Assembly: GCA_900321255.1 (NCBI GenBank)
Contig: ONVK01000003.1
Span: 1-57,685, forward strand
DNA length: 57,685 nucleotides
Direction of reading: 5' to 3'
Source of the DNA: an uncultured Lentisphaerota bacterium
GTDB lineage: Bacteria > Verrucomicrobiota > Kiritimatiellia > RFP12 > UBA1067
Shown here: one piece after another, positions 2,288-17,447 of the stretch
Numbering within the stretch: position 1 is the stretch's first letter
How the letters are laid out: the number at the start of each line of letters is the position of its first letter
Made by a program: the position numbers and the translations under genes
The notes under the pieces: generated by a model
Database searches by the model: none
Seen by the model: only the letters and a program-made list of their open reading frames with translations
What the model was told of the DNA's origin: nothing

Positions 2288-2307
2288 GGAGCGGTGCCGT
2301 AGAGGCG

Positions 2308-2347
2308 AAAGAAGCGCGGAGCGGTTGTCGCCGCTCCGCGTTTCTTT
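2308..2347 (+). terminator. Putative intrinsic terminator of the hydrogenase operon
   Basis: Inverted repeat AAAGAAGCGCGGAGCGG-ttgtcg-CCGCTCCGCGTTTCTTT (one G-U pair) ending in a T-rich tail, 20 nt after the hydA stop. Confidence 0.7.
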
Positions 2348-2351
2348 GGGA

Positions 2352-4319
2352 ATGAACGGCATAGCTGCCGCATTGCTGCTGCTTTCCGGCCTGAACGCCG
2401 CCTGCGCCGCGGAGGATGCGCTTGTGCCCGTCCGCGCGGGCGATGTAAGAATCCTCGGGCGCGTCGGGGAGCTGTTCGGGTCCTCGCTCGACAGGCGCGT
2501 CTTCTCTGAATACGCGCAGGGGCCTGTCTACGACGAGGCGGAGAACGCGTTCGCGACGCACTCTGACGACTCTGATCCCGACAGGGGCTACTGCGGCTGG
2601 CAGGGCGAGTACTGGGGCAAGACCATGCTCTGCTACGCCGGTGCGATCCGCTATACGCGCGACGCTAAGCTCGCGGCGTGGAGCGTGGAGAAGGCCCATC
2701 ACCTCATCGACGCCTATCAGCACCCCGACGGCTACCTTTCCACATACGCCAACCGGGATCTCCTGCGCATGAACCCGGAATCGCCCGACTCAGAGAAGCA
2801 TTGCTGCTTCAACATCTGGGGTCAGAAGTACACGATGTGGGCGCTCGTCGAGCTGTATCGCGCAACAGGCGACCGGAAGTGCCTCGAAGCGGCGGGGAAG
2901 ATGATGGACCATCTCGTCGCACAGCTCAGGCGCCTCGGCGTCACGATCGACAAGACCGGAACATGGGAGGGGATATCGTCCATGTCCATACTTCGCCCGC
3001 TCGTCGAGCTGTACATCGAAATGCCGAAACCGGAGTACAGGGAGCTCGCCGACTACATCGTGAGGGCGACGGACGTTGGCGAAGGCGTGAAGCCCGAGGT
3101 CAATCTCGTCCACGATGCGCTCTCCGACCGTCCGGTCGCCGCATGGTTCCGCAAGCCCATGTTCCTCGCCAAGGCGTACGAACTGCAGAGTTTCTTCGAG
3201 GGCGTGGCGGCGTACCACCGGCTCACCGGCGACGCGCGTGCGCTCGCGGCGACCGAGGCGTTCTGGGGGCATCTCCACCGCGAGGAACTGAATCCGATGC
3301 GGTCGGTGGGATACTTCGACCACTTTCTCGGCGCGAAGCGCCGCGTCAACGGAATGACGGAGCTGTGCGACGTCACCCACTGGATACGGCTCAACCGCGA
3401 ACTGTGGAAGATCACGGGAGAGGCGAAATATCTCGACTGCATCGAAGAGGCGTTCTACAACGCCTTTCTCGCGGGCGTCTCGCCCGACGGCTCATGGGGC
3501 GCGCACATCGTCCGCTCGCACGGAACGCGCCACCTTTCGGCGCCGCAGCAGGTCGGCATGAAGATGCACCAGTGCTGCCCCGACAACATGCTTCGCACGT
3601 TCTACGACTGGGCCGAGACGGTCGCTGACGTCGCGAAGGACGGCGCGTGGGAGCTGAACCTCTACTCGGACGCCGACGTTGCGCTTCCAGGGCTGCGCCT
3701 TGAGCTGCGCGGCGACTATCCGGTTTCGGAGACGTTCCGAGTCCGTGCCGTTGCCGAAAAGAGGGGGCGGCTCCGCCTGCGCGTGCCGTACTGGGCGCAG
3801 GACATGGTCGTGGACGGGACTTCTATGAAGCCGGCGTCAGGCCGCATCGATCTCCCCGTTGAGGCCGGCGAACACACTTTCGACATCGTTCTTAAGATGC
3901 CGCCGCGGGTCGTAGACTCCGAAGCGCCGGCATTCGAGGATATCGACACGGTGACTGAACTCGACACGGCGAAGCCGGAGGGATACACCAAGCGGTTCAT
4001 GAGCTGGTATACGCCGGAGATGAAAGGCCTGGAGCGCCGCACCGCTGCGGCCGAGGTCATGCGCGGGCCGCTCCTGCTCGCAAAGGGGCGGCTCGCCGGC
4101 ACGTCGCGCAACGAGACCTTCACCTTCAAGACGATCAACGCAAATGGCTGGAAGGTCTCCGTTTCGCCGGCCTTGCGCACGGTAGGCAACGCGTCCGTCT
4201 GGGGCGCATGGAACATGACGTTGGAGAAAGACGGGGAGAAGCGCACGCTTCCCGTCGCCGACTACTGGTCCGTCTCGAACGTCGACGACCCGTCCAACTG
4301 GTTTTCACTGTGGTTCTGA
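2352..4319 (+). CDS. Secreted GH127/GH146-like (DUF1680) beta-L-arabinofuranosidase-family glycoside hydrolase
   Basis: Signal peptide from ATG 2352. WQGEYWGK, DGYLSTY, ELC and CCPDN match the Zn/Cys catalytic set, plus LRLRVPYWA and RGPLLLA. Confidence 0.8.
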   Translation: MNGIAAALLLLSGLNAACAAEDALVPVRAGDVRILGRVGELFGSSLDRRVFSEYAQGPVYDEAENAFATHSDDSDPDRGYCGWQGEYWGKTMLCYAGAIRYTRDAKLAAWSVEKAHHLIDAYQHPDGYLSTYANRDLLRMNPESPDSEKHCCFNIWGQKYTMWALVELYRATGDRKCLEAAGKMMDHLVAQLRRLGVTIDKTGTWEGISSMSILRPLVELYIEMPKPEYRELADYIVRATDVGEGVKPEVNLVHDALSDRPVAAWFRKPMFLAKAYELQSFFEGVAAYHRLTGDARALAATEAFWGHLHREELNPMRSVGYFDHFLGAKRRVNGMTELCDVTHWIRLNRELWKITGEAKYLDCIEEAFYNAFLAGVSPDGSWGAHIVRSHGTRHLSAPQQVGMKMHQCCPDNMLRTFYDWAETVADVAKDGAWELNLYSDADVALPGLRLELRGDYPVSETFRVRAVAEKRGRLRLRVPYWAQDMVVDGTSMKPASGRIDLPVEAGEHTFDIVLKMPPRVVDSEAPAFEDIDTVTELDTAKPEGYTKRFMSWYTPEMKGLERRTAAAEVMRGPLLLAKGRLAGTSRNETFTFKTINANGWKVSVSPALRTVGNASVWGAWNMTLEKDGEKRTLPVADYWSVSNVDDPSNWFSLWF

Positions 4320-4346: not shown

Positions 4347-4883
4347 ATGCACGCAAGCCTTTCAGACATCGTGGCCGACATCGCGGCGAACTCGATCGAA
4401 GCCGGGGCGAGTAACATCCGCGTCAGCGTGGTCGACGAGAACGGGACGATCGAGCTGAAGGTCGAGGACAACGGGAAGGGGATGCCGCCCGAAATCGTCG
4501 TCAGGGCGTTCGATCCTTTCTACACCGAGCCCGGCAAGCACGACAAGCGGAAGGTCGGCATGGGCCTTCCCTTCGTCAAGCAGACGTGCGATGCCTGCGG
4601 CGGCAGCGTAAAGCTCGAGAGCAGGCAGGGCGTGGGCACGACGATAGTCTGCACGTTCCAGGCCGACAACATCGACCTGCCGCCGATGGGGAGCCTTCCG
4701 CAGGCGGTTCTGTCGCTCTTCAACTTCGGAGGGGATTTCGACCTCGTCTTCATCCACAGGAAAAACGGCAGCGGCTACGAAATCTCGCGTCTCGAACTCA
4801 TGGACGCCGTCGGCGGCTTCGATTCCGTCGAAGGGCTTTCGCTCGCGCGCGAGTTCCTTGAGGGCCAGGAAGAGTCTCTTTAG
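4347..4883 (+). CDS. Stand-alone HATPase_c (histidine-kinase-like ATPase) protein of the kind found in [FeFe]-hydrogenase gene clusters
   Basis: N-box (NSIEAGA), G1 (DNGKGM), F-box (FDPFYT) and G2 (GMGL). No sensor or HisKA domain. Confidence 0.75.
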   Translation: MHASLSDIVADIAANSIEAGASNIRVSVVDENGTIELKVEDNGKGMPPEIVVRAFDPFYTEPGKHDKRKVGMGLPFVKQTCDACGGSVKLESRQGVGTTIVCTFQADNIDLPPMGSLPQAVLSLFNFGGDFDLVFIHRKNGSGYEISRLELMDAVGGFDSVEGLSLAREFLEGQEESL

Positions 4884-4911: not shown

Positions 4912-6687
4912 ATGACTGAGGGCGTTGGAGTCGTAGAATTGAAGAAGATGAAGCTGAACCTGCCGGAAGGCGGGCTCAGGCTTGCCTATGGCGGCGTTTT
5001 GAAGGAAATCGAAGTCGCATACGAGGAATGCGGCGCGCCGCTCGGCGAATCCAACGCAATCTACATCTGCCACGCGCTCACGGGCGACGCGCATGTCGCT
5101 GGCATTAGGCCGGGCGAGGAAAAGCCAAGCGGCTGGTGGGAGGAGATGGTAGGCCCCGGGCGCGCGTTCGACACGAACAAATTCCACATCATCTGCGCGA
5201 ACGTCCTTGGCGGCTGCACCGGGACGACGGGGCCGATGTCGATCAACCCAGACACGGGGAAGCCCTACGGCTCGTCTTTTCCGCAGTACACGTTCGACGA
5301 CGCCGTTGACGTCTTCAGGATGTTCCTGAAGCAGCTCGGCGTGAAGAAGCTCGCGGCGCTCGTCGGCGGGAGCTACGGCGGGCTGCAGGTCGTAAACTGG
5401 ATGACGCGCTTCCCCGACGACATGGAGAAGTCGTGCCTGATCGCGACGAGCGCGAGCCTCAACACCCAGGCGATCGCGCTGAGCGTCATGAGCCGCAACT
5501 CCATCACGGACGACCCCAACTGGAAGGGCGGCGACTACTATCTCGAAGGCGACGGCAAGGGTCCGAAGGCGGGGCTTGCCGCGGCGCGCCAGCTTGCGCA
5601 CATAACGTATCTCTCGCGCGAGCTCCTGCAGCAGAAGTTCGGCCGCAGGCTCCAGGACAACTTCGTGAACGCCCCGGCGGAGGAGCGCGCCGAGCGCGAC
5701 CGCCTCTTCAAGACATATTTCCAGATCGAGAGCTATCTCGACTACCAGGCGATGAAGTTCCTGCGCCGCTTCGACGCGAACTCCTACCTCCACATAACGC
5801 GTTCGATGGACCTCTCCGATCCCTGCGACCGCTACGGTTCGCTTGATGCAGCTTTTGCCCGCGTTAACTCGAAGGTGCTCGTCGTCTCGTATGAAAACGA
5901 CATCCTCTTCCCGTGGTGGCAGTCGAAGGAGATCGTTGCGTCGCTTCTGCGCAACAAGAAGTCCGTGAGCTACTGCCATCTCGAAAGCGGCACGGGGCAT
6001 GATTCGTTCCTGACCGACATCGAGCACCTTTCGAAGGTCGTCGGCGGCTTTCTCTCCGAGCGCCCGGTCAAGGTGATGAAGTGGCAGGAGCGGCTCCACA
6101 GGAACGTCCTCGCGATGGTGAAGGAGAACTCCCGCGTCATCGACATCGGCTGCGGCGACGGCACGCTTCTCGACGTCCTGCGCGCGAAGAAGGGCGTTGC
6201 CGGCGACGGTGTGGAGATTGACGTCGACCGCTACGAGGAGGCGATTGCCGACGGGCACGACGTCTTCTGGGAAGACGTCGACGAAGGGCTTACTCTCGTT
6301 CCAGACGGGTACTACGACACGGCAATCGTCTCGGACACGCTGCAGGAGGTCAGAAATCCGCGCGGGCTGTTGAGCGAGGCGCTGAGGATCGCGAACGAGG
6401 CGATAGTCTCGTTCCCGAACTTCGCCGCCTACAGGATTCGCCTTACGCTCGCGCTCACGGGGCGGCTTCCCGTCTCGAAGCAGCTGCCGTTCCAGTGGTA
6501 CGACACGCCGAACATCCACTGCATCACGCTTAAGGACTTCAAGTCGCTCTGCGACAAGGAGGGGATCGATATCCTCGAGGTCAAGGCCGAGAGCCGGCAC
6601 ATCATCGGCAAGATCCTCATGTGGCTTGGTTTCAAGAACCTCGGTGCGTCGCGCATCGTCGCAAGAATAGCAAGGAGGCGCCAGTGA
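4912..6687 (+). CDS. metX: Homoserine O-acetyltransferase fused to a C-terminal MetW methyltransferase-like domain
   Basis: CHALTGDAH, NVLGGC, GGSYGG (nucleophile Ser), RFDANSY and GHDSFL. C-terminal DIGCGDG...SFPNF...WYDTPNIH is typical of MetW. Confidence 0.9.
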   Translation: MTEGVGVVELKKMKLNLPEGGLRLAYGGVLKEIEVAYEECGAPLGESNAIYICHALTGDAHVAGIRPGEEKPSGWWEEMVGPGRAFDTNKFHIICANVLGGCTGTTGPMSINPDTGKPYGSSFPQYTFDDAVDVFRMFLKQLGVKKLAALVGGSYGGLQVVNWMTRFPDDMEKSCLIATSASLNTQAIALSVMSRNSITDDPNWKGGDYYLEGDGKGPKAGLAAARQLAHITYLSRELLQQKFGRRLQDNFVNAPAEERAERDRLFKTYFQIESYLDYQAMKFLRRFDANSYLHITRSMDLSDPCDRYGSLDAAFARVNSKVLVVSYENDILFPWWQSKEIVASLLRNKKSVSYCHLESGTGHDSFLTDIEHLSKVVGGFLSERPVKVMKWQERLHRNVLAMVKENSRVIDIGCGDGTLLDVLRAKKGVAGDGVEIDVDRYEEAIADGHDVFWEDVDEGLTLVPDGYYDTAIVSDTLQEVRNPRGLLSEALRIANEAIVSFPNFAAYRIRLTLALTGRLPVSKQLPFQWYDTPNIHCITLKDFKSLCDKEGIDILEVKAESRHIIGKILMWLGFKNLGASRIVARIARRRQ

Positions 6688-7430
6688 CACTCCCGCAGAG
6701 AATAGCGCATATAGTCAACCACGGACTCGCCGCGCTGCATCCGTGCGTCTACGGCGATCTCACGGCGCGCGGCGCAGTCGGAGAGATCGCGGCCGACCTC
6801 CAGAAGGAGATTGTGCTCCTCTGCCCGGGACGCGACGCCAAGGCAATCGTTGATGATTTCGTCGCTGCGCTTCCAGAAGTGCGCAGGCTCGTCGACACCG
6901 ATGTCCAGGCCGCGTACGACGGCGACCCTGCGGCGACGAGCCGAATGGAGGTCGTGATGGCGTATCCCGGGCTCTATGCAGTCACCATCCACCGCCTGGC
7001 GCATGTACTCTACAAGCTTAAAGTCCCGATCATCCCGCGCGTCATGAGCGAGCTCGCCCATTCGAAGACGGGGATCGACATCCATCCCGGCGCGACGATA
7101 GGCGAGAGGTTCTTCATCGACCATGGAACCGGCGTCGTGATCGGCGAGACGACCGTAATAGGGCGGAACGTCCGTCTCTACCAGGGCGTGACGCTCGGAG
7201 GCCTCTCGTTCGACAAGGATGCGAACGGCGCGCTTGTAAAGGGGCTGAAGCGCCACCCCAACATCGAGGACAACGTGGTGATATACGCGAACGCCACGAT
7301 TCTCGGCGGCGACACCACGATAGGCCACGACTCCGAGATAGGCGGCAACGTCTGGATCAAGGAGTCGGTCCCGCCCAACTCTCGCGTCTACAACAAGCCG
7401 CCGGCTCCGGTGATAAAGAAAATAATGTGA
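6684..7430 (+). CDS. cysE: Serine O-acetyltransferase
   Basis: AAYDGDPAA, TGIDIHPGA, FIDHGTGVVIGET and KRHP motifs. GTG start overlaps the metX stop, with AAGGAGG as RBS. Confidence 0.9.
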   Translation: MTLPQRIAHIVNHGLAALHPCVYGDLTARGAVGEIAADLQKEIVLLCPGRDAKAIVDDFVAALPEVRRLVDTDVQAAYDGDPAATSRMEVVMAYPGLYAVTIHRLAHVLYKLKVPIIPRVMSELAHSKTGIDIHPGATIGERFFIDHGTGVVIGETTVIGRNVRLYQGVTLGGLSFDKDANGALVKGLKRHPNIEDNVVIYANATILGGDTTIGHDSEIGGNVWIKESVPPNSRVYNKPPAPVIKKIM

Positions 7431-8278
7431 TGCTCGCAAGTTCGCTCGCTCTTGCGCTTGTTGTTGGGGTCTGGAACGGCGAGTGGTTCCCGTCCGGGCG
7501 GGCAGAGCACAGGGCGAACGACCAGGTGGAGCGGGCGACGATCCGCGCGGCAGGGCAGATGCTCGCCGACGGGATCCTTGAAGTTGACCCTTCCGGGAAA
7601 GAGGACGTTGTCCTGTGCCTCAGCGAAATACGCGACCTCGAGACCGCACAGGCGCTCTGCGCCGCGATAGGGCGCACGAACCTCTCTGTCGCAGTCGTCA
7701 CCGCATACCGCAGGCGCGACCGCTTCGACCAGCAGCAGGACGTCATCATGACGACTCTTCCGGTCGCGAAAGCCAACTGGAGCACCTGGAAGACGCACAA
7801 GGACGCGATTCCGCCGCGTGGCTACGCCCATGCAGACGTAATCGTGTCGCCGGCGGTAACCGCGACCGTGTATGCCGTCCACCTAAAGTCCAACTACGGC
7901 CAGACGACGGAAGACACCGCCCAGACGAACCGCCTCAAGCGCGCCTACGCGATAGAGCAGCTTGTCGCCCAGGAGAAGCCGAAGCGCGGGAAGTTCCGCG
8001 CGCCTGTCATAATTGCCGGCGACTTCAACGCCGATCGGTTCTCAAAGTCGTTCGAGAAGGACACGTTGTTTCAGACGCTCCTTGACGCCGGATTCGTCGA
8101 TGCGTTCGAGGGCGTTCCAAAGGATGGCCGCATAACGCATCCGGGGAGCGGCCGCCACGCGGGGAGCACGCTCGACTACATCTTTATTCGCGGCTGCCGG
8201 GTCGAAAGCCCTCCGAAGGTCGTCCCCGCGCTTCGCATATCAGACCATGACGCGGTGTTTGTCCGCCTTCTTCCCTGA
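7430..8278 (+). CDS. Endonuclease/exonuclease/phosphatase (EEP) family protein, probably exported
   Basis: WN, HLKS, IIAGDFN, LDYIF and SDH motifs. Hydrophobic N-terminus. Start is 7427 (GTG) or 7430 (ATG). Confidence 0.8.
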   Translation: MLASSLALALVVGVWNGEWFPSGRAEHRANDQVERATIRAAGQMLADGILEVDPSGKEDVVLCLSEIRDLETAQALCAAIGRTNLSVAVVTAYRRRDRFDQQQDVIMTTLPVAKANWSTWKTHKDAIPPRGYAHADVIVSPAVTATVYAVHLKSNYGQTTEDTAQTNRLKRAYAIEQLVAQEKPKRGKFRAPVIIAGDFNADRFSKSFEKDTLFQTLLDAGFVDAFEGVPKDGRITHPGSGRHAGSTLDYIFIRGCRVESPPKVVPALRISDHDAVFVRLLP

Positions 8279-8293
8279 AAAAAGCATTTGCAG

Positions 8294-9628
8294 ATGCAGC
8301 ACAAGAAAAGGCTTCTCATACTCCTGCCTGACGGGAAGATACACAAGGTGTCGCTTCCGTTCCTCACTATGTCGTTCCGCGAGGCGCCGCTCACGGGCAC
8401 GATGCTCGCGGCGCTCACGCCGTCCGACCTCGGCTTCGACATAAAGCTCTGCGATGCGAGCGTGTCGAAAATTCCGTACGGCGAAAAGTTCGACCTCGTC
8501 GCGGTAAGCATCATCACCGGCACAGCCGTCGAGGGATACCGACTCGCGGACCACTTCCGCGCGCGCGGCGCGAAGGTCGTGATAGGAGGCGTCCACGCGA
8601 CGCTGCTTCCGGACGAGGCGTCCACGCATGCGGACAGCGTGATGACGGGCTTCGGCGAGATTGCGTGGCCGCAGATGTGCCGCGACTTCTGCGCCGGCGC
8701 GCTCAAGCCCCGCTACGACGGCGGTTCGCCCGACATCGCGGGGCTCCCCTGGCCGCGCCGCGACCTGCAGAAGCGCTTCGGCTACGCGATGCCCAACACC
8801 GTCTTCGCGACGCGCGGCTGCCGGAACAACTGCGACTTCTGCGCCGTCGTCGGCGCGAAGTTCGGCTGGCACACACGTCCCGTCGCGGAAGTCGCGGCGG
8901 AAATCGCCGCGCTGAAGGGCTCGCGCTTCGCGTTCAACGACGTGAGCCTCTGCGAGGACCGCGAATACGCGTTCGAACTCTGCCGCGCGCTGAAGCCGCT
9001 GAAGAAGAAGTGGGGCGGACTCATGACGCTCAAGGCCGCGTCGGACGAGGCGATGCTCGACGCGCTTGCGGAGGCGGGGTGCTGCTTCATGCTGCTCGGG
9101 TTCGAGTCGGCGCATCGAAACGCGCTTGTCGGAATCCACAAGTCGTTCAACACTCCTGACCAATATCAGCGTATCGTCTCGAACATGCACGCGCGCGGGA
9201 TGATGATACAGGGGTGCTTCATCTTCGGACTCGACGACGACACGACGGATGTCTTCGACGACACGGTGAAGATGATCGACGAGCTGCAGATCGACATTCC
9301 GCGCTACGCGCTCTACACGCCGTTCCCGTCTACGGCCTGCCATGCGCGCGTCGAGGGGCAGGACCGTCTCCTCGGACACAACTGGGCGTGGTTCGACACG
9401 CAGCACGTCGTGATACGTCCGAAGAACATGACGCCCGAGGAGCTCGACGCAGGCTTCATCCACGCCTGGCAGGAGACGTACTCGATGCGGTCGATATTCC
9501 GGCGTCTCTCCCCGAAGCGCCACCAGTTCCCCGTCGCGCTTGTCGGCAACCTCGCCTACCGCCTCTACCGCCGCGAGCTCCGCCACGACGCGCACCGCTT
9601 CCCGCTCTCTCCGGAGGACGTGCCGTGA
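8294..9628 (+). CDS. Cobalamin-binding radical SAM protein (class B methylase-like) 1
   Basis: N-terminal B12-binding domain (VVIGGVHATLLPDEA), TRGCRNNCDFC, LLGFES, FIFGLDDD and YTPFPST. Confidence 0.88.
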   Translation: MQHKKRLLILLPDGKIHKVSLPFLTMSFREAPLTGTMLAALTPSDLGFDIKLCDASVSKIPYGEKFDLVAVSIITGTAVEGYRLADHFRARGAKVVIGGVHATLLPDEASTHADSVMTGFGEIAWPQMCRDFCAGALKPRYDGGSPDIAGLPWPRRDLQKRFGYAMPNTVFATRGCRNNCDFCAVVGAKFGWHTRPVAEVAAEIAALKGSRFAFNDVSLCEDREYAFELCRALKPLKKKWGGLMTLKAASDEAMLDALAEAGCCFMLLGFESAHRNALVGIHKSFNTPDQYQRIVSNMHARGMMIQGCFIFGLDDDTTDVFDDTVKMIDELQIDIPRYALYTPFPSTACHARVEGQDRLLGHNWAWFDTQHVVIRPKNMTPEELDAGFIHAWQETYSMRSIFRRLSPKRHQFPVALVGNLAYRLYRRELRHDAHRFPLSPEDVP

Positions 9629-10713
9629 TGATGCGTTTGCCATGGCGGGGAAAGACGGTGCCTCACGCAGTCGTCGATATCATACGCGGATGCAACTGCC
9701 GCTGCGCGCACTGCTACAATTCAGCCGCTCCGCGCGCGAAGTCGATGGACGAGATATCCTCCGACGTGCGCGCGATTTGCGCCGCGCGCAATGTGCGGAC
9801 AATATCGCTCAGCGGCGGTGAGCCGCTCCTCCATCCGCAGATACTTGACATCGTCCGCATGCTGAAGCGCGATGCGCGTGTCTCGGCGAGCATGCTCACG
9901 AACGGAATTCTCTTCGACGACGAAATGGCGGCGCGCCTGGGCGAAGCGGGACTTGACTTCGTCACCCTGCATGTCCAGAAGGGGCAGATTCGACCCGACT
10001 GCGACGACGCGCGGGTGGAGTCGGTGAGACGCGAGAAGGGGCGCATCGCCCGCGCGCACGGAATATATCCAGCGATCGTCGAGACCATCGCGTCGGACGA
10101 CGCCCAGGCGTTCGCGGCGCTCGGGCGGTTTCTGCGCGGCGCGCCCGAGTTCGAGTACGCGCTCGTCACTGTCGCGCGGGATTTCTCCTCAATCGACCCT
10201 GAGACTGCGGAGGTCGAGCCGGACCGCGGCCCGATGCTGTCCGCCCTGGCGGGAGAAGGGTATGAGCCGGGCGTGTTCGTGGGAGGGTGCTTCCGCCGCG
10301 ACGTGCCGCGCTGGTATGTTCTTCAGAGTGTCCAGGCGGTGGATTCCTCCGGACGCGAGCGCGACTGGAGCATGGTACGTCCGGGACTTGTCGAACGCGC
10401 GTTTCTCTGGGGCTGTGCCCTGTTGTTCAGAAGGTCTGTCCACTGGATGAAGTCAACTTCCGCGAAGACGAAGGCGCGGCTTGTGCTGAACGGACTTTTA
10501 GGCGGACGCCTCTCCACTCTCGCGTTTGCGGTACGCGCCGTTCTTCACGGATGGCGTGTTCTGGAGAAGCATATAATCGTCCAGTACCCGCCGCGCTCGC
10601 TCGGCGGAGGACGCGTCGAGTTCTGCGACAGCTGCCCCGACGCGACTGTCGTGGACGGACGGCTTCGTCCGCTCTGCATGTCGGACCTCGGGAAGGAGGT
10701 CTGCCGGCCGTGA
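9628..10713 (+). CDS. Radical SAM protein with C-terminal CDxCxDAT...PxC motif (paralogue A)
   Basis: RGCNCRCAHC, SGGEPLLHP, LTNG, C-terminal FCDSCPDATVVDGRLRPLC. Start overlaps the previous stop (TGATG), with GGAGGA as RBS. Confidence 0.85.
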   Translation: MMRLPWRGKTVPHAVVDIIRGCNCRCAHCYNSAAPRAKSMDEISSDVRAICAARNVRTISLSGGEPLLHPQILDIVRMLKRDARVSASMLTNGILFDDEMAARLGEAGLDFVTLHVQKGQIRPDCDDARVESVRREKGRIARAHGIYPAIVETIASDDAQAFAALGRFLRGAPEFEYALVTVARDFSSIDPETAEVEPDRGPMLSALAGEGYEPGVFVGGCFRRDVPRWYVLQSVQAVDSSGRERDWSMVRPGLVERAFLWGCALLFRRSVHWMKSTSAKTKARLVLNGLLGGRLSTLAFAVRAVLHGWRVLEKHIIVQYPPRSLGGGRVEFCDSCPDATVVDGRLRPLCMSDLGKEVCRP

Positions 10714-11966
10714 ATGCCTTCAACGGGAATACGCGCGTGTTCTGCTTCGTCTGCGGCGAAGAGCATCAGGCGGTGACGTACGAGGAGGATGGCTCCATGA
10801 AGTGCCGCATCGACTGCCCGAGGTCCCCGGGGAAGGTGATAGCTCTGAGCTCCGACGCCGCGCAGTTTCTCCGCTTCCGGTCGTTCCCCGCGCAGAAGGT
10901 CGAGCGCAGGCAGCAGTTTGCGCTTCTGCACGTGACTGACAGATGTTCCATGCGCTGTCCGATCTGCTACGCCTCTTCCGGCGACGGCGGAGCCAGACCG
11001 GTCGACGAGATAGTGGAAATGGCCCGCCGGGCGAAGGAAGCCGGCGTGCGGTCCGTGTCCCTGACGGGCGGCGAGCCGACCGAGCATCCAGGGCTCGAGG
11101 AAATCGTGCGCCGCGTTTCCCGCGATCTCGGTCTCAGGACCGCGCTTCTGACGAACGGCCTTGCGCTTGCCGCCGACGGTTCGCTGGCGGGAAGGCTTCG
11201 CCGCGCGGGACTGTCCAAGGCCGTCATTTCGTTTGACACGCTCTCTTCCGACACGAGCCGCGCGATGCGCGGCGGGGACTACGTGGCCGCGAAGCTGCGC
11301 GCGTTCTCCAGCGCGGCCGCGGCCGGTCTGTCGCTTTCGGCCAACACGACCGTATGCGACCTGAATCTTCACGAGGTCGGCGCGGTGTTCCGCACCCTGG
11401 CATCGAGGTTTCCCTGCATGACGCATGTCCTCCTGCAGCCGTTTGCCGACTTCGGGCGGAGGGATGTGCACTGCCGCATTGACCGCGAGCAGATCGTGCG
11501 GGCGCTTGTCGAAAGCGGCGAGTTCCCCGTATCCGATCCGGATCACTTCATCCCGGCGCCGAACATACCTGCCTTCGGCGTGTCCGTGCATCCGGACTGC
11601 TGCGCCGTCTGTCCGGTAGTGGTTCGCGGCGTCGGCCCGAACGCGCGCATGGCTCCGCTTTCCTCGCCCGACGCCCTGCGCAGGCTGTGCGTGCGGCTGG
11701 CGTCGGTAGACGGACGCGGCATCATTCCGCCGACCATGAAGGCGGCGTTCGCCTGGTTCCGCTGCGCCGGGCTTCTAGGCCTGCCGCTTCTGGGACGCAG
11801 GGGCATCGGCGGAAGGGTCGTCCTGGCGGTTATCGACAATCTGCCGGATCGCGACTGCATGCTTGCCGACCGCATCGGTCGGTGCGGCTCCGCCCTGGTC
11901 TGCGCGGACGGATGCCTGCGTCCTGTGTGCGCAGCGTACAGGATGGGACTGGAGAGAAGAAAATGA
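10710..11966 (+). CDS. Radical SAM protein resembling the MJ0619/tetraether lipid synthase (Tes, GDGT-MAS) family
   Basis: N-terminal CxxC...CP segment, HVTDRCSMRCPICYA, TGGEPTEHP, LTNG, HPDC and C-terminal RCx6DGxLxPxC. GTG start overlaps the previous stop, with AAGGAGGT as RBS. Radical SAM call is secure; the family call is by motif memory. Confidence 0.75.
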   Translation: MNAFNGNTRVFCFVCGEEHQAVTYEEDGSMKCRIDCPRSPGKVIALSSDAAQFLRFRSFPAQKVERRQQFALLHVTDRCSMRCPICYASSGDGGARPVDEIVEMARRAKEAGVRSVSLTGGEPTEHPGLEEIVRRVSRDLGLRTALLTNGLALAADGSLAGRLRRAGLSKAVISFDTLSSDTSRAMRGGDYVAAKLRAFSSAAAAGLSLSANTTVCDLNLHEVGAVFRTLASRFPCMTHVLLQPFADFGRRDVHCRIDREQIVRALVESGEFPVSDPDHFIPAPNIPAFGVSVHPDCCAVCPVVVRGVGPNARMAPLSSPDALRRLCVRLASVDGRGIIPPTMKAAFAWFRCAGLLGLPLLGRRGIGGRVVLAVIDNLPDRDCMLADRIGRCGSALVCADGCLRPVCAAYRMGLERRK

Positions 11967-13060
11967 ACGCACTTAAACTGCCGTGGAAGGGGAAGGATGT
12001 GCCTGCCGCGCTGCTGGACGTAGTCCGCGGATGCAACTGCATCTGCAGGGCGTGCTTCAACCGTCGGCCGCCTTCGCACAAGCCTCTCGGGACAATTCGC
12101 GAAGAGCTTGCCGCGATCCAGCGGCTCAGGAACGTGAAGAGCGTCGGCATTACGGGCGGAGAGCCTTTGCTCCATCCGCAGATCGCCGACGTAGTGCGAC
12201 TCATCCGCGACCGTGGCCTGAGCCCGGCGATGCTGACAAACGGAATCCTCTGGAACGCCGATGTCGCGGACAGACTCCGCAGGGCGGGGCTCGACACGGT
12301 AATGTTCCATATACAGCCTGGGCAGACGCGTCCGGATCTTCGCCAGGAAGCGACGGCGGCGGACGCGTTCGCACTCATCTCGGAGAAGTGCGCGACTGCT
12401 GCGGCCAGCGGCGTCGAGGCTGTTGCGATTGCAACTGTAAGCGCAAGGCGTCCGCAGGAGACGGACGCAATGCTTGACGCATTTCTCGGATGCAGGGAGT
12501 GCTCGTATCTATGGCTGACCCTCGAGCGTGACATGCAGACGATCGGCAGCGGGCGCGAATCATCCGCGCGGGGGAACGGAATCGAGGAGATGTCCGGCTT
12601 CCTGCTCCGGCACGGGTGGCGCCCCTTCGCCGGAATAGGGGGCTCGATCGACGCGTCAAGATGGCGCTGGATGGCGTTCCACTCGTTCGCCCGCATAGAC
12701 CGCGCCGGACATGTCGCCGGACTGGCGTCCGTCCCGCCGTCCCTTTTCGAGCGCGGCGCATTTGCCGCGCTACGTCTCATCGGCGTCCAGCTTCCCTACC
12801 GCGTCAAGGCGTCTCGCGCCGGGATTCTGGGGCGGATCGCGGCCAACGCGGTTTCCGGCGGCCCGGTGAAGAATCTCGGCTTTGTCCTTGCGGCCCTGGC
12901 GGGACGACAGCGGATCGAGCCGAAGCATGTCGTGGTGGAGGCTCTTCCCGAGCTGGCTCCCGACGGAAGGATTGAACACTGCGATCCGTGCATCGACGCG
13001 ACTGTAAGAGACGGACGTCTTGTTCCTCCGTGCCTTGCGGACGCAGACTGCGGAGTGTGA
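11963..13060 (+). CDS. Radical SAM protein with C-terminal CDxCxDAT...PxC motif (paralogue B)
   Basis: RGCNCICRAC, TGGEPLLHP, LTNG, C-terminal HCDPCIDATVRDGRLVPPC. Clearly similar to 9628-10713. ATGA overlap. Confidence 0.85.
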   Translation: MNALKLPWKGKDVPAALLDVVRGCNCICRACFNRRPPSHKPLGTIREELAAIQRLRNVKSVGITGGEPLLHPQIADVVRLIRDRGLSPAMLTNGILWNADVADRLRRAGLDTVMFHIQPGQTRPDLRQEATAADAFALISEKCATAAASGVEAVAIATVSARRPQETDAMLDAFLGCRECSYLWLTLERDMQTIGSGRESSARGNGIEEMSGFLLRHGWRPFAGIGGSIDASRWRWMAFHSFARIDRAGHVAGLASVPPSLFERGAFAALRLIGVQLPYRVKASRAGILGRIAANAVSGGPVKNLGFVLAALAGRQRIEPKHVVVEALPELAPDGRIEHCDPCIDATVRDGRLVPPCLADADCGV

Positions 13061-13067
13061 CAGATAT

Positions 13068-14390
13068 ATGAGAATCCTCTTCATACAGCCAGCCGTGGGG
13101 CACAAGCCCGGCGGCGCGACCTATCCGAAGACGTGGATCATGGAGCCGCTTGCGCTCGCCGTTCTTTCCGCGCTGACGCCGCGCCGCGTCGAGCGTCTGT
13201 TCATGGACGACAGGCTGGGCGAAGTCGACTACGCGGCGGATGCAGACGTTGTGGCCATGCCCGTCGAGTGCTATACTGCGGCTCGCAGCTACGAGATCGC
13301 CGCGCGGTTCCGCGCGAAGGGTGCAAGGATCGTTCTCGGCGGGTTCCATGTAAAGCTCAACGAGGCCGAGGCCGCCGCCAACGCGGACGCCGTGATACTC
13401 GGCGACGCCGAGACGACATGGCCGCAGGTCGTGAACGACCTGGAGGCGGGAAGGCTCGCCTCGCGGTACGTAGGATGCGGCGGCGTGTTCTGCCCCATGC
13501 CCGACCGCTCGCTCTACGCCGGAAGGGACTATGGACGACTCAACCTCGTGGAGACTTCGCGCGGATGCTCGTTCAACTGCGAGTTCTGTTCCGTGACGAA
13601 GTTCTTCGGCAGGCGCTACACGCCGCGTCCGCTGGACGAGGTGATGACCGAGGTGCGGTCGCTCGAAAAGGACATCGTCTTCTTCGTCGACGACAACCTC
13701 GCGATGGACGTGGAGCGCCTGAAGGACCTCTGCCGGCGGATGATCCCCATGCACATGCATTGGGTCGGGCAGCTCAGCATCCACTCCGCCAAAGACGACG
13801 AGCTGCTCGCGCTGATGGAGAGGAGCGGCTGCGCGGGCGTGCTTATAGGATTCGAGTCGCTCGACGCCGCGACGCTGTCCGACATGGGCAAGCGCGTCAA
13901 CTCTTCGAACAGCGACTATGCCGCGGCGATCGAGAACCTGAGGCGGCACCACCTCTCCATCTATGCGACGTTCGTCTTCGGCTACGACCATGACACCGCC
14001 GAGACCTTCGAGCGGACGTTCGAGTTCGCGATGGAGAGCCGATTCTTCTTCGCCGCCTTCAACCATTTGGTGCCTTTCCCCGGAACCGACGTGCATGCGC
14101 GCTTCGTGCGCGAAGGGCGAATGCTCCACGACAGGTGGTGGCTCGATCCGAACGTCCGCTTCGGAGACGTCGTGTTCCGTCCGAAGAACTTCACGCCGGA
14201 GGGCCTGGCCGAGACCTGCCGCAGATACAGACTTCGTTTCTATTCGACGCGGTCGGTCTTCCGCCGGGCGATGGACGTGCGCGCGAACACGCACGGACTG
14301 CTCAAGGCGGCGATATTCTTCGCCTCCAACTTTACGCAGGAGCGCGAGGTGATGCGGCGGCACGGACTTCCCTTCGGAGGAGATCCATGA
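13068..14390 (+). CDS. Cobalamin-binding radical SAM protein (class B methylase-like) 2
   Basis: MEPLALAVLSALTP, IVLGGFHV, ETSRGCSFNCEFC, FVDDN, IGFES, FVFGYDHD and PFPGT. Confidence 0.88.
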   Translation: MRILFIQPAVGHKPGGATYPKTWIMEPLALAVLSALTPRRVERLFMDDRLGEVDYAADADVVAMPVECYTAARSYEIAARFRAKGARIVLGGFHVKLNEAEAAANADAVILGDAETTWPQVVNDLEAGRLASRYVGCGGVFCPMPDRSLYAGRDYGRLNLVETSRGCSFNCEFCSVTKFFGRRYTPRPLDEVMTEVRSLEKDIVFFVDDNLAMDVERLKDLCRRMIPMHMHWVGQLSIHSAKDDELLALMERSGCAGVLIGFESLDAATLSDMGKRVNSSNSDYAAAIENLRRHHLSIYATFVFGYDHDTAETFERTFEFAMESRFFFAAFNHLVPFPGTDVHARFVREGRMLHDRWWLDPNVRFGDVVFRPKNFTPEGLAETCRRYRLRFYSTRSVFRRAMDVRANTHGLLKAAIFFASNFTQEREVMRRHGLPFGGDP

Positions 14391-15409
14391 TGCGAGCGCG
14401 GATGTACCGTCCGTCGGACGAGGCGGACCTCGTGCGGCTCGCCTCCGCCGCGATGCCCGGCTGGGCGCGGCTCAGGTACGACTATGCCCCGGGTTACGCG
14501 GCGGCGGAGGCGCTGAAGGGCGCGTGCGAGATCGTCGTAGTCGAAGACGAAGAAGGCTGCATGGCAGGATGCGGCACGCGCGCGACGCGGCGACTCTACC
14601 TCGACGGCGCGCCGCAGGACGTCGGCTATCTGAGCGGCTTAAGAAGCTTTCCCGGCGCGCGGCGCGGATGGGGGCTCTTCCGCGGCTTCAGGGCCATCGC
14701 CGAACTTGAGGCCGCCGCGCCGAACGCGCTGACCTTTACGACGATTCTCGACGACAACGCGGAGGCGCGAGAGCTGTTGACGTCGGGACGCGCAGGGCTG
14801 CCGAAATACTCGCCCCGCGGAAGGGTCGTTACGTATGCGCTCGCCCCGCGCGGCGGAGCGGAGCCCGAAAGGGCGTCGTTCGACGAGCTGGAAGAATTCT
14901 ATGCACGGGTATCTCCGAGGAAGCAGCTCTTCCCCGTCTTTGGCAAGGCGCTCCCTCCAGGGCTTTCGGCCGACGACTTCTTCGTCGTGCGGCGCGGCGG
15001 ACGCGTTGCGGCGGCGGGTGCGGTGTGGAACCACGGCGAGAGGCGTCGAATATTCGTCGACGGGTATATGCTTCGCCTGCGCGTGCTGCGTCCTTTCCTC
15101 AACGTTCTGTTCAGGTTTTCCAGTTGTCCGATGCTTCCTTCGCCCGGAAGCGAGTTCGCGTGCTCGTATCTCGCATACGCGCTTGCCGAGAACGACGACC
15201 CGTCGCTCTTTGCCGTGCTCGTCGAAGCGGCGCGGCGCATCTGCCGCGGACGGAACCTCGTCCTCTCGCTGCATTCCCACGACCCGCTCACCCGCGTCGC
15301 GGCAAAGTTCGGCGGCTGGCGCTACCGGAGCGATTTCCTTACCGTCGAGTTCGCAGGACGCCCGCGCAACCTCCGCGGCATTCCCTACATAGAGGCTGGC
15401 GCGCTGTGA
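14387..15409 (+). CDS. Putative GNAT-fold acyltransferase (tandem GNAT-like), uncharacterised
   Basis: GNAT-like pattern: R-x-Y-x-P-x-D N-terminus, VVVED...MAGCG strand, GYLSGLRS.P..R, TTILDDNxxA. ATGA overlap with the upstream gene. Confidence 0.55.
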   Translation: MMRARMYRPSDEADLVRLASAAMPGWARLRYDYAPGYAAAEALKGACEIVVVEDEEGCMAGCGTRATRRLYLDGAPQDVGYLSGLRSFPGARRGWGLFRGFRAIAELEAAAPNALTFTTILDDNAEARELLTSGRAGLPKYSPRGRVVTYALAPRGGAEPERASFDELEEFYARVSPRKQLFPVFGKALPPGLSADDFFVVRRGGRVAAAGAVWNHGERRRIFVDGYMLRLRVLRPFLNVLFRFSSCPMLPSPGSEFACSYLAYALAENDDPSLFAVLVEAARRICRGRNLVLSLHSHDPLTRVAAKFGGWRYRSDFLTVEFAGRPRNLRGIPYIEAGAL

Positions 15410-16098
15410 GCGAAATGGTTAGAGTCGGGATATGGGCTGTAGGGCGGCTGTCGGGTGATGACCGCGAGGGGATGGAGCGGCTGTACCGCGAGTACTACGA
15501 AGGCGCGAACGAATGCGACTTCGCACGCGACCTCGCGGAGAAGGATTGGGCGATCGTGCTCAGGGACGCGGAGGGCGTTCGCGGTTTCTCGACGATGAAG
15601 CTCGTGCGCGTGGCGGAGATGAACGTCCTCTTCAGCGGCGACACGGTGGTGGACGAGGCGTGCCGCTCGCAGACCGGGCTCGCCGGCGCGTTCGGACACG
15701 TCATGCGCAATCTCGCCGAGACCGGCGTCGAAGATCCGCACTGGTTCCTTATCTGCAAGGGCGCGCGTACGTACCGCTTCCTGCCGACGTTTTTCCGTCG
15801 CTATGTGCCAGGTCCACGCGAGGACGCCGAGCTCGCAGAGCGCCTTCGCTGCGTCGCCTCCGCGATGTATCCGCGCGAATACGACCCCGCGACTGGCGTG
15901 CTGCGCTTTGGCGCGGGGAAGGACAGGCTCAAGGGCGATGCTCTCCGCATGGACCGCGAGTCGGTGAGGTTCCGCGCATTGAACCCGGACTGGGCGCGTG
16001 GCGACGAACTCTGCTGCATGGCGCCGCTTGCGCTCTCCAACCTGAACCGCCTCGGCGAGCGGGTGATCGCCGACACGAACCCCGAGTGGCACCTCTGA
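15406..16098 (+). CDS. Hypothetical protein, probable GNAT-like fold
   Basis: Coupled ORF (GTGA overlap; alternative ATG 15415). FxRDLAEKD...VRGFST...FSGDTVVD...WFLICKGARTYRFLP...LNPxWxxGDEL. Confidence 0.6.
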   Translation: MSEMVRVGIWAVGRLSGDDREGMERLYREYYEGANECDFARDLAEKDWAIVLRDAEGVRGFSTMKLVRVAEMNVLFSGDTVVDEACRSQTGLAGAFGHVMRNLAETGVEDPHWFLICKGARTYRFLPTFFRRYVPGPREDAELAERLRCVASAMYPREYDPATGVLRFGAGKDRLKGDALRMDRESVRFRALNPDWARGDELCCMAPLALSNLNRLGERVIADTNPEWHL

Positions 16099-17447
16099 TG
16101 CGCATCCTCCTCGCCAACATCGCGTGGTTCCTCTCGACGCTTCTAGACGCCGTGCGCTTCGCGCTCGCGCTGCACGACCCTGCGAAGGCGCAGGCGAAAG
16201 CGGCCGCTCGGCGACATCCGACGCGCCCCGAGGACGTCATCCTCGAGGAGCCGACGAGCGGCACGACTGGCGGGACAAAGTGGATTCCGTACACAGAGCA
16301 GCTGCGGCGCGAGTTCATGCGCGCGGTCAATCCGTGGATGGCGTCGATATACCTCCGCCACCCAGGGCTACTTTTCTGCACGCACTACTGGAGCGTCTCG
16401 CCGTACACGGAGGTGCGCCAGCCGAAGGACGGTCTGCGCCGCGGCTTCGCCGAGGACCGCGAATATCTTGGCCCCGTGCGCGCGCGCCTCGTTGCCGCGC
16501 TTTTCCCCGTATCCGCCGCGGTGGCGGAGGAGCGCGATCCGGAGCGGCACATGATGAAGACGGCGCGTGCGCTCGCGGCGTCGCGCAGGCTCGGGCTCGT
16601 CTCGGTGTGGCATCCGTCTGCGTTCCTGCGTCTCCTCGACTTCATGTCCGAACGCGCGGACGAGGTGTCGGACAATCCGCGCGTGCGGCGGCTTCTCGCT
16701 GCGCGGGACTTCCGCGGCGTGTGGCCGCGCCTGAAGCTGATCAGCTGCTGGGACGCGGCGTTTGCCGCTTCGGACGCTGAGAAGGTGCGCGCGGCGTTTC
16801 CGGACGTCGAGGTGGAGGGGAAAGGGCTGATGGCCACGGAGGGCGTGGTGACCGTTCCGTGGTTCGGACGTCACGTCGCTGCGGTGACGTCGCATTCGCT
16901 TTCCTTCGAGTGCGTGGACGAGGAGAGTGGCGAGCCCGTCGCGGGGACGGCGGTCGGCGTGGAGCGCCTTGAGAAGGGGAAGCGCTACGGCGTCGTGCTC
17001 ACGACGGGAAACGGATTCACGGACTACAGACTCGGCGATGTCGTGGAATGCACGGGCTTCGTCGCGAAGACGCCGCGGCTCGAGTTTTGCCACCGGGCGG
17101 GCGGAACGATCGACATGCACGGCGAGAAGATGCATCCGGCCTTTGTGGCCGAGGTGATTTCGAAGCTCTCCGGGCGCTTCGGACGCGCCGCCTTCGCTAT
17201 GCTCGTCCCGCGGCAGGACCGCCGCGGATACCGCCTTCTGTGGGAGCCGGAAGGCGGGAGGCTTCCGGAGGCGGAGGAGGTCGAGGGGCTTCTCCGGGCC
17301 AACTACCACTACGCCCACGCCGTGAACCTCGGGCAGCTCGAGCCGGTCGCGGTGGAGGAGGTGAAGGACGGACTCGGCAGATGGTGCGCCGCGGCAGATG
17401 TGCCGCGCGCCGCCGCTAAGCCTCCAAGCCTCGGAAATCTTGACTAA
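16098..17447 (+). CDS. GH3 family acyl acid-amido synthetase (adenylate-forming, 'auxin-responsive promoter' family)
   Basis: P-loop EPTSGTTGGTKWIPYT, GLMATEG, VVLTTGNGFTDYRLGDVV and GEKM. TGATG overlap. Confidence 0.85.
   Translation: MRILLANIAWFLSTLLDAVRFALALHDPAKAQAKAAARRHPTRPEDVILEEPTSGTTGGTKWIPYTEQLRREFMRAVNPWMASIYLRHPGLLFCTHYWSVSPYTEVRQPKDGLRRGFAEDREYLGPVRARLVAALFPVSAAVAEERDPERHMMKTARALAASRRLGLVSVWHPSAFLRLLDFMSERADEVSDNPRVRRLLAARDFRGVWPRLKLISCWDAAFAASDAEKVRAAFPDVEVEGKGLMATEGVVTVPWFGRHVAAVTSHSLSFECVDEESGEPVAGTAVGVERLEKGKRYGVVLTTGNGFTDYRLGDVVECTGFVAKTPRLEFCHRAGGTIDMHGEKMHPAFVAEVISKLSGRFGRAAFAMLVPRQDRRGYRLLWEPEGGRLPEAEEVEGLLRANYHYAHAVNLGQLEPVAVEEVKDGLGRWCAAADVPRAAAKPPSLGNLD

Follow-up and report, generated by a model that had tools for sequence, protein, structure and literature searches.

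What could an uncultured bacterium be making with five radical S-adenosylmethionine (SAM) enzymes, two acyltransferase-like proteins and an amide synthetase, all encoded head to tail? The question is raised by 57,685 nucleotides of DNA, here called the window (contig ONVK01000003.1 of assembly GCA_900321255.1, positions 1 to 57,685 of the forward strand), from an uncultured Lentisphaerota bacterium of the Kiritimatiellia (RFP12, UBA1067), in which eight genes, g1 to g8, occupy positions 8294-17447. The answer to which we lean, with somewhat more belief than doubt, is that they form one operon whose five-gene core is a self-contained pathway, taking its substrates from primary metabolism and giving an N-acylated amide with radical tailoring. 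The eight genes are as follows.

g1, 8294-9628, + strand: radical SAM enzyme of class-B type (B12-binding domain plus radical SAM), 444 residues; core, g1-type orthogroup.
g2, 9628 (or GTG 9625)-10713, + strand: radical SAM protein without B12 domain, 361 residues, paralogue of g4; accessory module.
g3, 10710-11966, + strand: radical SAM protein with an N-terminal four-Cys motif, 418 residues; accessory module.
g4, 11963-13060, + strand: radical SAM protein without B12 domain, 365 residues, paralogue of g2; accessory module.
g5, 13068-14390, + strand: class-B-type radical SAM enzyme, 440 residues; core, g5-type orthogroup.
g6, 14387-15409, + strand: predicted tandem-GNAT fold outside Pfam and NCBIfam families, 340 residues; core.
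g7, 15415 (or GTG 15406)-16098, + strand: predicted single GNAT fold outside Pfam and NCBIfam families, 227 residues; core.
g8, 16098-17447, + strand: short-form GH3-family adenylating amide synthetase, 449 residues; core.

These + strand frames follow one another without room for signals between them. If g7 starts at the GTG at 15406, six of the seven junctions are stop/start overlaps of 1 or 4 nucleotides (TGATG or GTGA at g1/g2, GTGA at g2/g3, ATGA at g3/g4 and g5/g6, TGATG at g7/g8) and the other, g4/g5, is a 7-nucleotide gap, so that the tight run of eight consecutive genes described in the initial annotation is borne out. The g6/g7 junction depends on the start chosen, being a GTGA overlap with GTG 15406 or a 5-nucleotide gap with ATG 15415, the start which the alignment of relatives favours. 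In an independent study of the bovine gut there are contigs that cover the g1-g8 region with zero differences, e.g., 9005-13142 and 13121-14862, and the GC content of the eight genes matches that of their flanks. A scan predicted no terminator in the 15 nucleotides between g1 and the EEP gene upstream of it. In an RNA-labelled sequencing run, X20, short contigs lie on g1, g3, g4 and g8 (10848-11023, 11952-12156 and 12338-12519 at 99% identity or more), though DNA carry-over is possible there; under a 31-letter rule they bridge none of the seven junctions, the stretches that they leave uncovered being uninformative.

Is it the whole set of eight that is kept together elsewhere? A locus survey with a g7 profile, at one genome per species, gave 72 loci, onto which the eight window proteins were mapped by tblastn, and the 52 with at least 4.2 kb upstream and at least 1.7 kb downstream of g7 were taken as evaluable. 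The core, scored as at least two B12-like radical SAM genes together with g6, g7 and g8, is present in 43 of these 52, under at least ten phylum-level labels, and a g6 profile hidden Markov model brings in L048 and L068 to make 45, so the genes do co-occur in other genomes. In 40 of the 52 loci g5, g6, g7 and g8 follow one another contiguously in that order, in 33 the whole series g1-g5-g6-g7-g8 does so, and 12 loci have at least three B12-like radical SAM genes. Genes like g2 and g4 occur in 18 and g3-like genes in 10, each of the latter accompanied by a g2/g4-like gene, and the exact eight-gene order of the window was found once more, in L019. The conserved unit is thus five genes, a g1-type and a g5-type radical SAM gene, the tandem GNAT, the single GNAT and GH3, and not the eight with five radical SAM enzymes that had been proposed as the cluster; g2-g4 are accessory.

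The record titles of all 72 loci are those of metagenome-assembled genomes (MAGs) or say 'uncultured', and among the labels that they carry are Kiritimatiellia, Lentisphaeria/Victivallales, Verrucomicrobia/Opitutales, Planctomycetota, Acidobacteriota, Desulfobacterota, Bacteroidota, Spirochaetia, Omnitrophota, Calditrichia, Elusimicrobia, Acidimicrobiia and one cyanobacterial bin. The habitats, those of uncultured anaerobes, are rumen, sediments, lakes and soils. Two further labels, Fibrobacter succinogenes for L018 (its g7 is 74% identical to the window's) and Enterobacterales for L025, have the look of mistakes in binning or classification. In the phylum 15 of 301 sampled genomes, the host genome counted, have a member of the g7 family, and of 24 other species in the genus 2 have an orthologue of the GH3 gene; for that reason we regard the cassette as an accessory trait. 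A literature search, supplementary files not covered, found a paper on the GH3 ligase OlsH and nothing describing the cassette, in keeping with the earlier statement that no characterised pathway has this gene set. From a five-gene core that recurs in many phyla and matches no described pathway, an undescribed modified acyl amide therefore follows as the probable product.

The closest relatives of the window's cassette (G013:C217, G013:C45 and L016) have g6-g8 93-96% identical to the window's (95-96% in L016), with a g5 homologue at 60% and a g2-like gene at 59%; gene order also differs, the g2-like gene lying directly before g6. The radical SAM half seems to have been exchanged in these relatives. 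In L016 a gene for a HipA-type toxin kinase is inserted between g6 and g7 (2488-3738; HipA_C 173.9 bits, Couple_hipA 83.1 bits). In a Verrucomicrobia MAG (UBA6053; L041:6012-12209) g6-g7-GH3 is preceded solely by radical SAM genes without B12 domain, of g3-like and g2/g4-like types, and no B12-like radical SAM gene was detected in the locus.

Of the core proteins, g8 is the one whose family says most about chemistry. It matches the Pfam families GH3 (PF03321, 41.8 bits) and GH3_M (PF23571, 53.9 bits; cut-off 23.6), and TSGTTGGTK, KGLMATEG and YRLGD, which we take to be the three GH3 nucleotide-binding motifs, are conserved across 28 aligned cassette GH3 proteins, as are GEK and the C-terminal Lys441. 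With the motifs so kept, carboxylate adenylation and amide formation are to be expected of g8, and the naming of a GH3 amide synthetase stands. The GH3 C-terminal domain PF23572 was undetected in g8 and in relatives at least 48% identical to it and is listed for more distant ones; some 95 residues, the invariant Lys441 among them, follow GH3_M in g8. At the N-terminus (16098-16175) the Kiritimatiellae-type GH3 proteins swap the usual segment for a short hydrophobic stretch, and they are without a middle insertion of about 40 columns found in other cassette GH3 proteins. According to the main text of the OlsH paper (PMC12493201), GH3 enzymes have three nucleotide-binding motifs and OlsH is the only characterised bacterial member, one that couples free fatty acids with ornithine at the cost of ATP and requires neither acyl carrier protein (ACP) nor coenzyme A (CoA). 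Since ligation of the OlsH type works without an ACP or CoA donor, a carrier gene would be unnecessary in the cassette.

The two proteins before it are invisible to sequence models. Neither g6 nor g7 has a Pfam match even at E<=10 or any match in NCBIfam, and against sequences in the PDB nothing fell below E 0.5; because of this, the label 'GNAT-like' that the initial annotation gave them could be tested by fold only. AlphaFold models built from alignments of 51 (g6) and 56 (g7) homologues reached pLDDT 95.1 and 95.8, and they predict with high confidence a tandem GNAT fold for g6 and a single GNAT fold for g7, so that the label holds at the level of predicted structure. Foldseek placed the g6 model with N-myristoyltransferases (TMq up to 0.62), Eis and the tandem GNAT MAB_4324, and VIA-align gave Z 19.7 to 4zm6 (a glucosamine N-acetyltransferase region), 18.3 to N-myristoyltransferase and 17.7 to MAB_4324. 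For g7 the Foldseek probability was 1.0 to YhbS and NatD, and the VIA-align scores, Z 12.9 to NatD, 11.8 to LasI and 9.9 to FeeM, are near ties; as the FeeM and LasI matches tie with histone and N-terminal acetyltransferases, the fold picks out no subgroup. ESM Atlas neighbours of both carry GNAT names, and alignment of the g7 profile with the g6 profile by hhalign was weak (probability 66.8%, 75 columns). The g7 family comprises at least 1615 clusters at 90% identity, every one annotated 'hypothetical'.

All five radical SAM proteins have the CX3CX2C motif and exceed the cut-off of 29.5 bits for PF04055 (41.9-84.2 bits), as their naming required. Two of them, g1 and g5, belong to the core. 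In g1 (Radical_SAM 41.9 bits, CRNNCDFC at residue 176) the B12-binding domain PF02310 scores 32.2 bits, just above the cut-off of 32.1, and of the NCBIfam models HpnJ matches best, with 85.4 bits where the cut-off is 577.6. In g5 (57.1 bits, CSFNCEFC at residue 167) there is a PhpK family match of 107.2 bits against a cut-off of 600, and weak matches to lipid-related B12 radical SAM models, a ladderane-type one (74 bits) and HpnR (55.5 bits). In a tree of 109 B12-like radical SAM proteins a g1-type clade of 47 tips (support 1.0) takes in 27 of the 29 genes in second place upstream of g6, and 33 of the 42 in first place upstream of g6 fall on the other side, so the two types are separate clades that keep their positions; because of this split of clade and position, g1 and g5 are to be taken as two old orthogroups and not as recent duplicates. 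A third B12-like paralogue, 30% identical to g5, is encoded on another contig of the host genome (G000:C73:8554-9798).

What, then, of the three other radical SAM proteins? The paralogues g2 (Radical_SAM 72.5 bits, Fer4_12 37.6 bits) and g4 (59.1 and 26.6 bits) have their CX3CX2C motifs as CNCRCAHC at residue 22 and CNCICRAC at residue 24, respectively, and each has a CxxC...C at its C-terminus. In g3 (Radical_SAM 84.2 bits, CSMRCPIC at residue 79) cysteines 12, 15, 32 and 36 make up the N-terminal motif, and among solved proteins the closest to it in sequence is GDGT-MAS (7tol, E 4.8e-19 over residues 71-293). To this extent its earlier description as Tes-like has a basis. However, g3 fails the NCBIfam models both for Tes (NF045702; 82.3 bits against a cut-off of 450, with model positions 85-277 of 486 matched) and for TrsS (NF045646; 112.9 against 490), so that the likeness, as judged from sequence, is partial and is that of the radical SAM core. 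Being in 10 of the 52 cassettes only, g3 is in any case unable to define what the cassette does.

Variants of the cassette hint at the order of steps. In two database proteins, P0241 and P0242 (799 and 784 residues), a g7-type GNAT (residues 11-244) and GH3 (about 365-752) are in one frame, in gene order, which suggests that the two act consecutively on one substrate. Some cassettes contain extra genes, namely further GNATs, an amidohydrolase and, at one locus, a radical SAM-SPASM gene. Three loci have g7 without radical SAM genes: L070:10001-17975 combines it with a Rieske/VanA_C oxygenase, GH3 and a class I methyltransferase, L077:8894-12760 with a protein of the FA_desaturase family and a Rieske protein, and L079:8475-10735 with an AMP-binding enzyme; open reading frames (ORFs) of unassigned family in L070 gave no useful PDB sequence match. 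These are single cases; they agree with a role in tailoring a small and probably hydrophobic molecule, and hint at oxygenases being able to take the place of the radical SAM enzymes, the three loci possibly being oxygen-dependent counterparts. In a Calditrichia MAG (L058:10730-13531) g7 and GH3 are separated by a gene for a TonB-dependent receptor.

The surroundings show no conserved precursor, carrier protein, transporter or regulatory RNA. After removal of the near-duplicate loci L015, L016, L017, L037, L057, L061, L064 and L066, a tally of 74 same-strand neighbouring proteins (76 ORFs minus two that overlap) contained no recurrent Pfam family, the maximum being 2 of 74. Neither ACP, ketosynthase, non-ribosomal peptide synthetase, peptidase, leader-binding protein nor transporter or exporter recurs among these neighbours, which extends to the other loci what had been noted for the window on the lack of a carrier, assembly line, precursor and exporter. 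At gathering thresholds Rfam found no RNA family in the window plus 12 loci, about 277 kb in all.

How might five proteins co-operate in the pathway that we favour? The g7 GNAT would acylate an amine, for instance an amino acid, with acyl-CoA or acyl-ACP as the donor. GH3 (g8) would adenylate a free carboxylate, either that of a fatty acid as with OlsH or that of the N-acyl amino acid from g7, and join it to a second amine, and the tandem GNAT g6, with its resemblance to N-myristoyltransferase, might add a further acyl group. The two B12-like radical SAM enzymes would modify unactivated carbons, methylation being the most likely modification and other radical chemistry being possible, and in the Kiritimatiellae lineage the g2-g4 module without B12 domains would contribute extra radical steps. 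The product may be an amino lipid, or else a soluble amide of small size. The radical-modified acyl amide originally proposed is thereby retained as the best reading in its broad form, and tetraether-style cross-linking, its narrow form, lacks support.

Several points weigh against this account. Nine of the 52 evaluable loci are without the full core by tblastn; the incomplete ones include L041, whose radical SAM genes are those without B12 domain, L025, whose locus is without GH3, L082, where g1 is in fragments, and L070, L077, L079 and L080, with other g7 contexts. The fused P0241 and P0242 could be gene-calling read-throughs and not real fusions. With the OlsH model (NF052613) g8 scores 23.9 bits where the cut-off is 620; an OlsI-like partner, an alpha/beta-hydrolase O-acyltransferase, is not recurrent, there being no alpha/beta-hydrolase among the top 25 families listed for the 74 neighbours. 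As for a lipid product, these same neighbours include no conserved lipid gene, such lipid-leaning hints as there are stem from single variant loci, and a clear membrane segment is missing from all eight proteins, the maximum Kyte-Doolittle mean over 19 residues being 1.54, at the N-terminus of g8. The B12-binding domain of g5 scores 20.9 bits (22.7 in a second scan), below the cut-off, and a PDB sequence search gives AprD4 (6fd2) as the best solved relative for g1 and g5 alike, together with an unnamed radical SAM protein, 9ccb; AprD4 is a dehydratase that acts without cobalamin. For these two reasons, the sub-threshold domain and the closeness to AprD4, the B12 dependence of g1 and g5, the two B12 radical SAM enzymes first named, is uncertain. 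Since, in addition, the scores with the models of defined function are low, methylation by g1 and g5, which had been put forward as cobalamin-dependent, is plausible and yet an assumption. CobS, CbiB and methylmalonyl-CoA mutase were not found in the host MAG, which is 87.8% complete, so this is no proof of absence; a strong B12-binding protein (101.9 bits) on another contig makes it probable that the host uses a cobamide. More generally, each step beyond fold and family is our inference.

Other explanations place the same enzymes on other substrates. That the cassette remodels membrane lipids, whose chains would undergo C-C cross-linking of the Tes/GDGT-MAS type, cyclisation or methylation while GH3 and the GNATs worked on the head groups, is decidedly unlikely. 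It can appeal to GDGT-MAS as the closest solved relative of g3, to the weak ladderane-type and HpnR matches of g5, to an FA_desaturase-family protein and a weak CMAS-like methyltransferase match beside g7 in single variant loci, and to OlsH being, as described in the main text of its paper, a lipid enzyme. However, the partial match and failing Tes score of g3 and its absence from most cassettes, which leave the lipid cross-linking first envisaged unsupported, count against it, as does the lack of any glycerolipid, ether-lipid or isoprenoid gene recurring among the 74 neighbours and of predicted membrane segments. We give very little chance to modification of a peptide or protein whose gene lies elsewhere, be it post-translational or in the manner of RiPPs (peptides synthesised on the ribosome and modified after translation), with the radical SAM enzymes methylating or cross-linking residues, the GNATs acylating an N-terminus or lysine and GH3 ligating an amine to a carboxylate. 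B12 radical SAM C-methyltransferases and SPASM-type radical SAM enzymes are common in RiPP clusters, there are weak NCBIfam matches to RiPP radical SAM enzymes, including ApyD and rSAM_ocin_1, a radical SAM-SPASM gene is added in one locus, and g6 resembles N-myristoyltransferase, a protein N-acyltransferase. Yet among 575 candidate small ORFs in or beside the cassettes none is shared across phyla, the only clusters being from one Planctomycetaceae lineage and overlapping real genes (precursors may sit elsewhere or diverge beyond the reach of BLAST); no peptidase, leader-binding protein or exporter recurs; and small-molecule carboxylates are the only known substrates of GH3 enzymes.

Could the cassette instead be part of a conflict, as an accessory system spread by horizontal transfer for anti-phage defence or for an antimetabolite or siderophore-like secreted compound? 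Its patchiness within phylum and genus, its presence in many phyla with unrelated flanks, the mosaic close relatives, the HipA toxin gene of L016, the TonB-dependent receptor of L058 and weak matches of g2-g4 to PADLOC pVip all lend themselves to this. The pVip matches, however, are confined to the generic radical SAM core; no PADLOC 2.0 model matches g1, g6, g7 or g8 (g5 gave 27.5 bits with PDC-M51A), no effector, nuclease, immunity or export gene recurs, and the window has neither mobile-element genes at the borders nor an anomaly of GC content, all of which leaves the idea very improbable. Equally hard to credit is a role in making or modifying a cofactor, a compatible solute or a component of cell wall or nucleic acid, despite a known logic: pyrrolysine is made by a radical SAM mutase and an amide ligase, and N-acetyl-beta-lysine by a radical SAM aminomutase and a GNAT. 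A weak PylB match of g1 (21.9 bits), the glucosamine N-acetyltransferase region as the best VIA-align match of g6 and the soluble look of all eight proteins are in line with such a role. The likeness to those systems is, however, far below cut-offs, genes for sugar nucleotides, peptidoglycan or tRNA are not recurrent neighbours of the cassette, and the patchy distribution speaks against a core cofactor.

To return to the N-acylated amide with radical tailoring, a bolder version of it may be put forward, though we think it rather unlikely. The core would be an anaerobic radical SAM route to an undescribed class of C-alkylated N-acyl amides, most likely amino lipids or lipo-dipeptides, produced by many uncultured members of the Planctomycetes-Verrucomicrobia-Chlamydiae (PVC) group, Bacteroidota, Desulfobacterota, Acidobacteriota and Omnitrophota; the pair of g7 GNAT and GH3 would be a new two-step unit of amide assembly; and in oxygen-tolerant lineages (L070, L077) enzymes of the Rieske, desaturase and class I methyltransferase types would replace the radical SAM enzymes. 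If the product did turn out to be an amino lipid of the membrane or an N-acyl amide used as a signal, a new class of lipid or metabolite would have a traceable gene marker, bacterial GH3 ligases would have a second function after that of OlsH, and there would be two new radical SAM activities of class-B type. A genuine swap of radical SAM enzymes for oxygenases would add to the examples of one product that is reached by both an anaerobic and an aerobic route. Independently of this, two of the five core proteins, g6 and g7, are from large families without a Pfam or NCBIfam model.

Around the eight genes the window has genes of housekeeping type. A MetX-MetW fusion, MetX being homoserine O-acetyltransferase, is encoded in one frame of 591 residues at 4912-6687 (427.8 bits, cut-off 331); a CysE/EpsC-like serine acetyltransferase (6690-7430) and the EEP-family protein (7427-8278) come between it and g1, the whole group looking closely packed against g1, and a family II pyrophosphatase gene is downstream of g8. 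By tblastn at 1e-8 the three upstream genes are beside none of the 72 loci and the downstream ones recur in the near-identical L016 alone, and for this reason the flanking genes are not counted in the cassette. Further upstream are genes for the large subunit of an [FeFe]-hydrogenase with a NuoG-like N-terminus (482-2287) and for a GH127-like glycosidase (2268-4319), and a 178-residue ORF (4347-4883), possibly of a truncated sensor kinase, whose sole domain is HATPase_c. The host MAG is 2.78 Mb in size; the nearest relatives that bear a name are MAGs from rumen, labelled Kiritimatiellae or Verrucomicrobia, and near-identical DNA is present in sequencing runs from ten studies, mostly of bovine gut.

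How does the cassette compare with systems already known? For g3 the nearest radical SAM core is that of Tes, GDGT-MAS and TrsS, though only some 190-220 residues match, and g3 has 418 residues where the Tes and TrsS models have 486 and 441. The class B radical SAM enzymes HpnJ, BchE, PhpK, CysS and TsrM, and also AprD4, have, as do g1 and g5, an N-terminal Rossmann-type domain followed by a CX3CX2C radical SAM core; with the equivalog models of class B, however, g1 and g5 score far below all cut-offs, the best being 107 against 600. N-myristoyltransferase, Eis, MshD, MAB_4324 and clavulanate CBG have two GNAT domains per chain, as the g6 model does (Z 14.7-19.7), though at 7-18% identity, and whether the donor is acetyl-CoA, a long acyl-CoA or an aminoacyl-tRNA is not readable from the fold. 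FeeM, LasI and RpaI, synthases of N-acyl amino acids or acyl-homoserine lactones, and N-acyltransferases of OlsB type share the predicted fold of g7 (Z 9.9-11.8); while g7 is outside every Pfam model, that of OlsB's family included, an acyl-carrier-dependent N-acyltransferase would suit both its size and its place in the operon. In the OlsH system the partners are OlsG and the alpha/beta-hydrolase OlsI, where the cassette has two GNAT-fold proteins and at least two radical SAM enzymes, and 'radical SAM' has no occurrence in the main text of the paper on it (PMC12493201). What OlsH/OlsI of Singulisphaera acidiphila, as described in that text, does have in common with the cassette is a GH3-type ligase of the PVC group that makes an amide at the expense of ATP, with nucleotide-binding motifs that are kept in g8.

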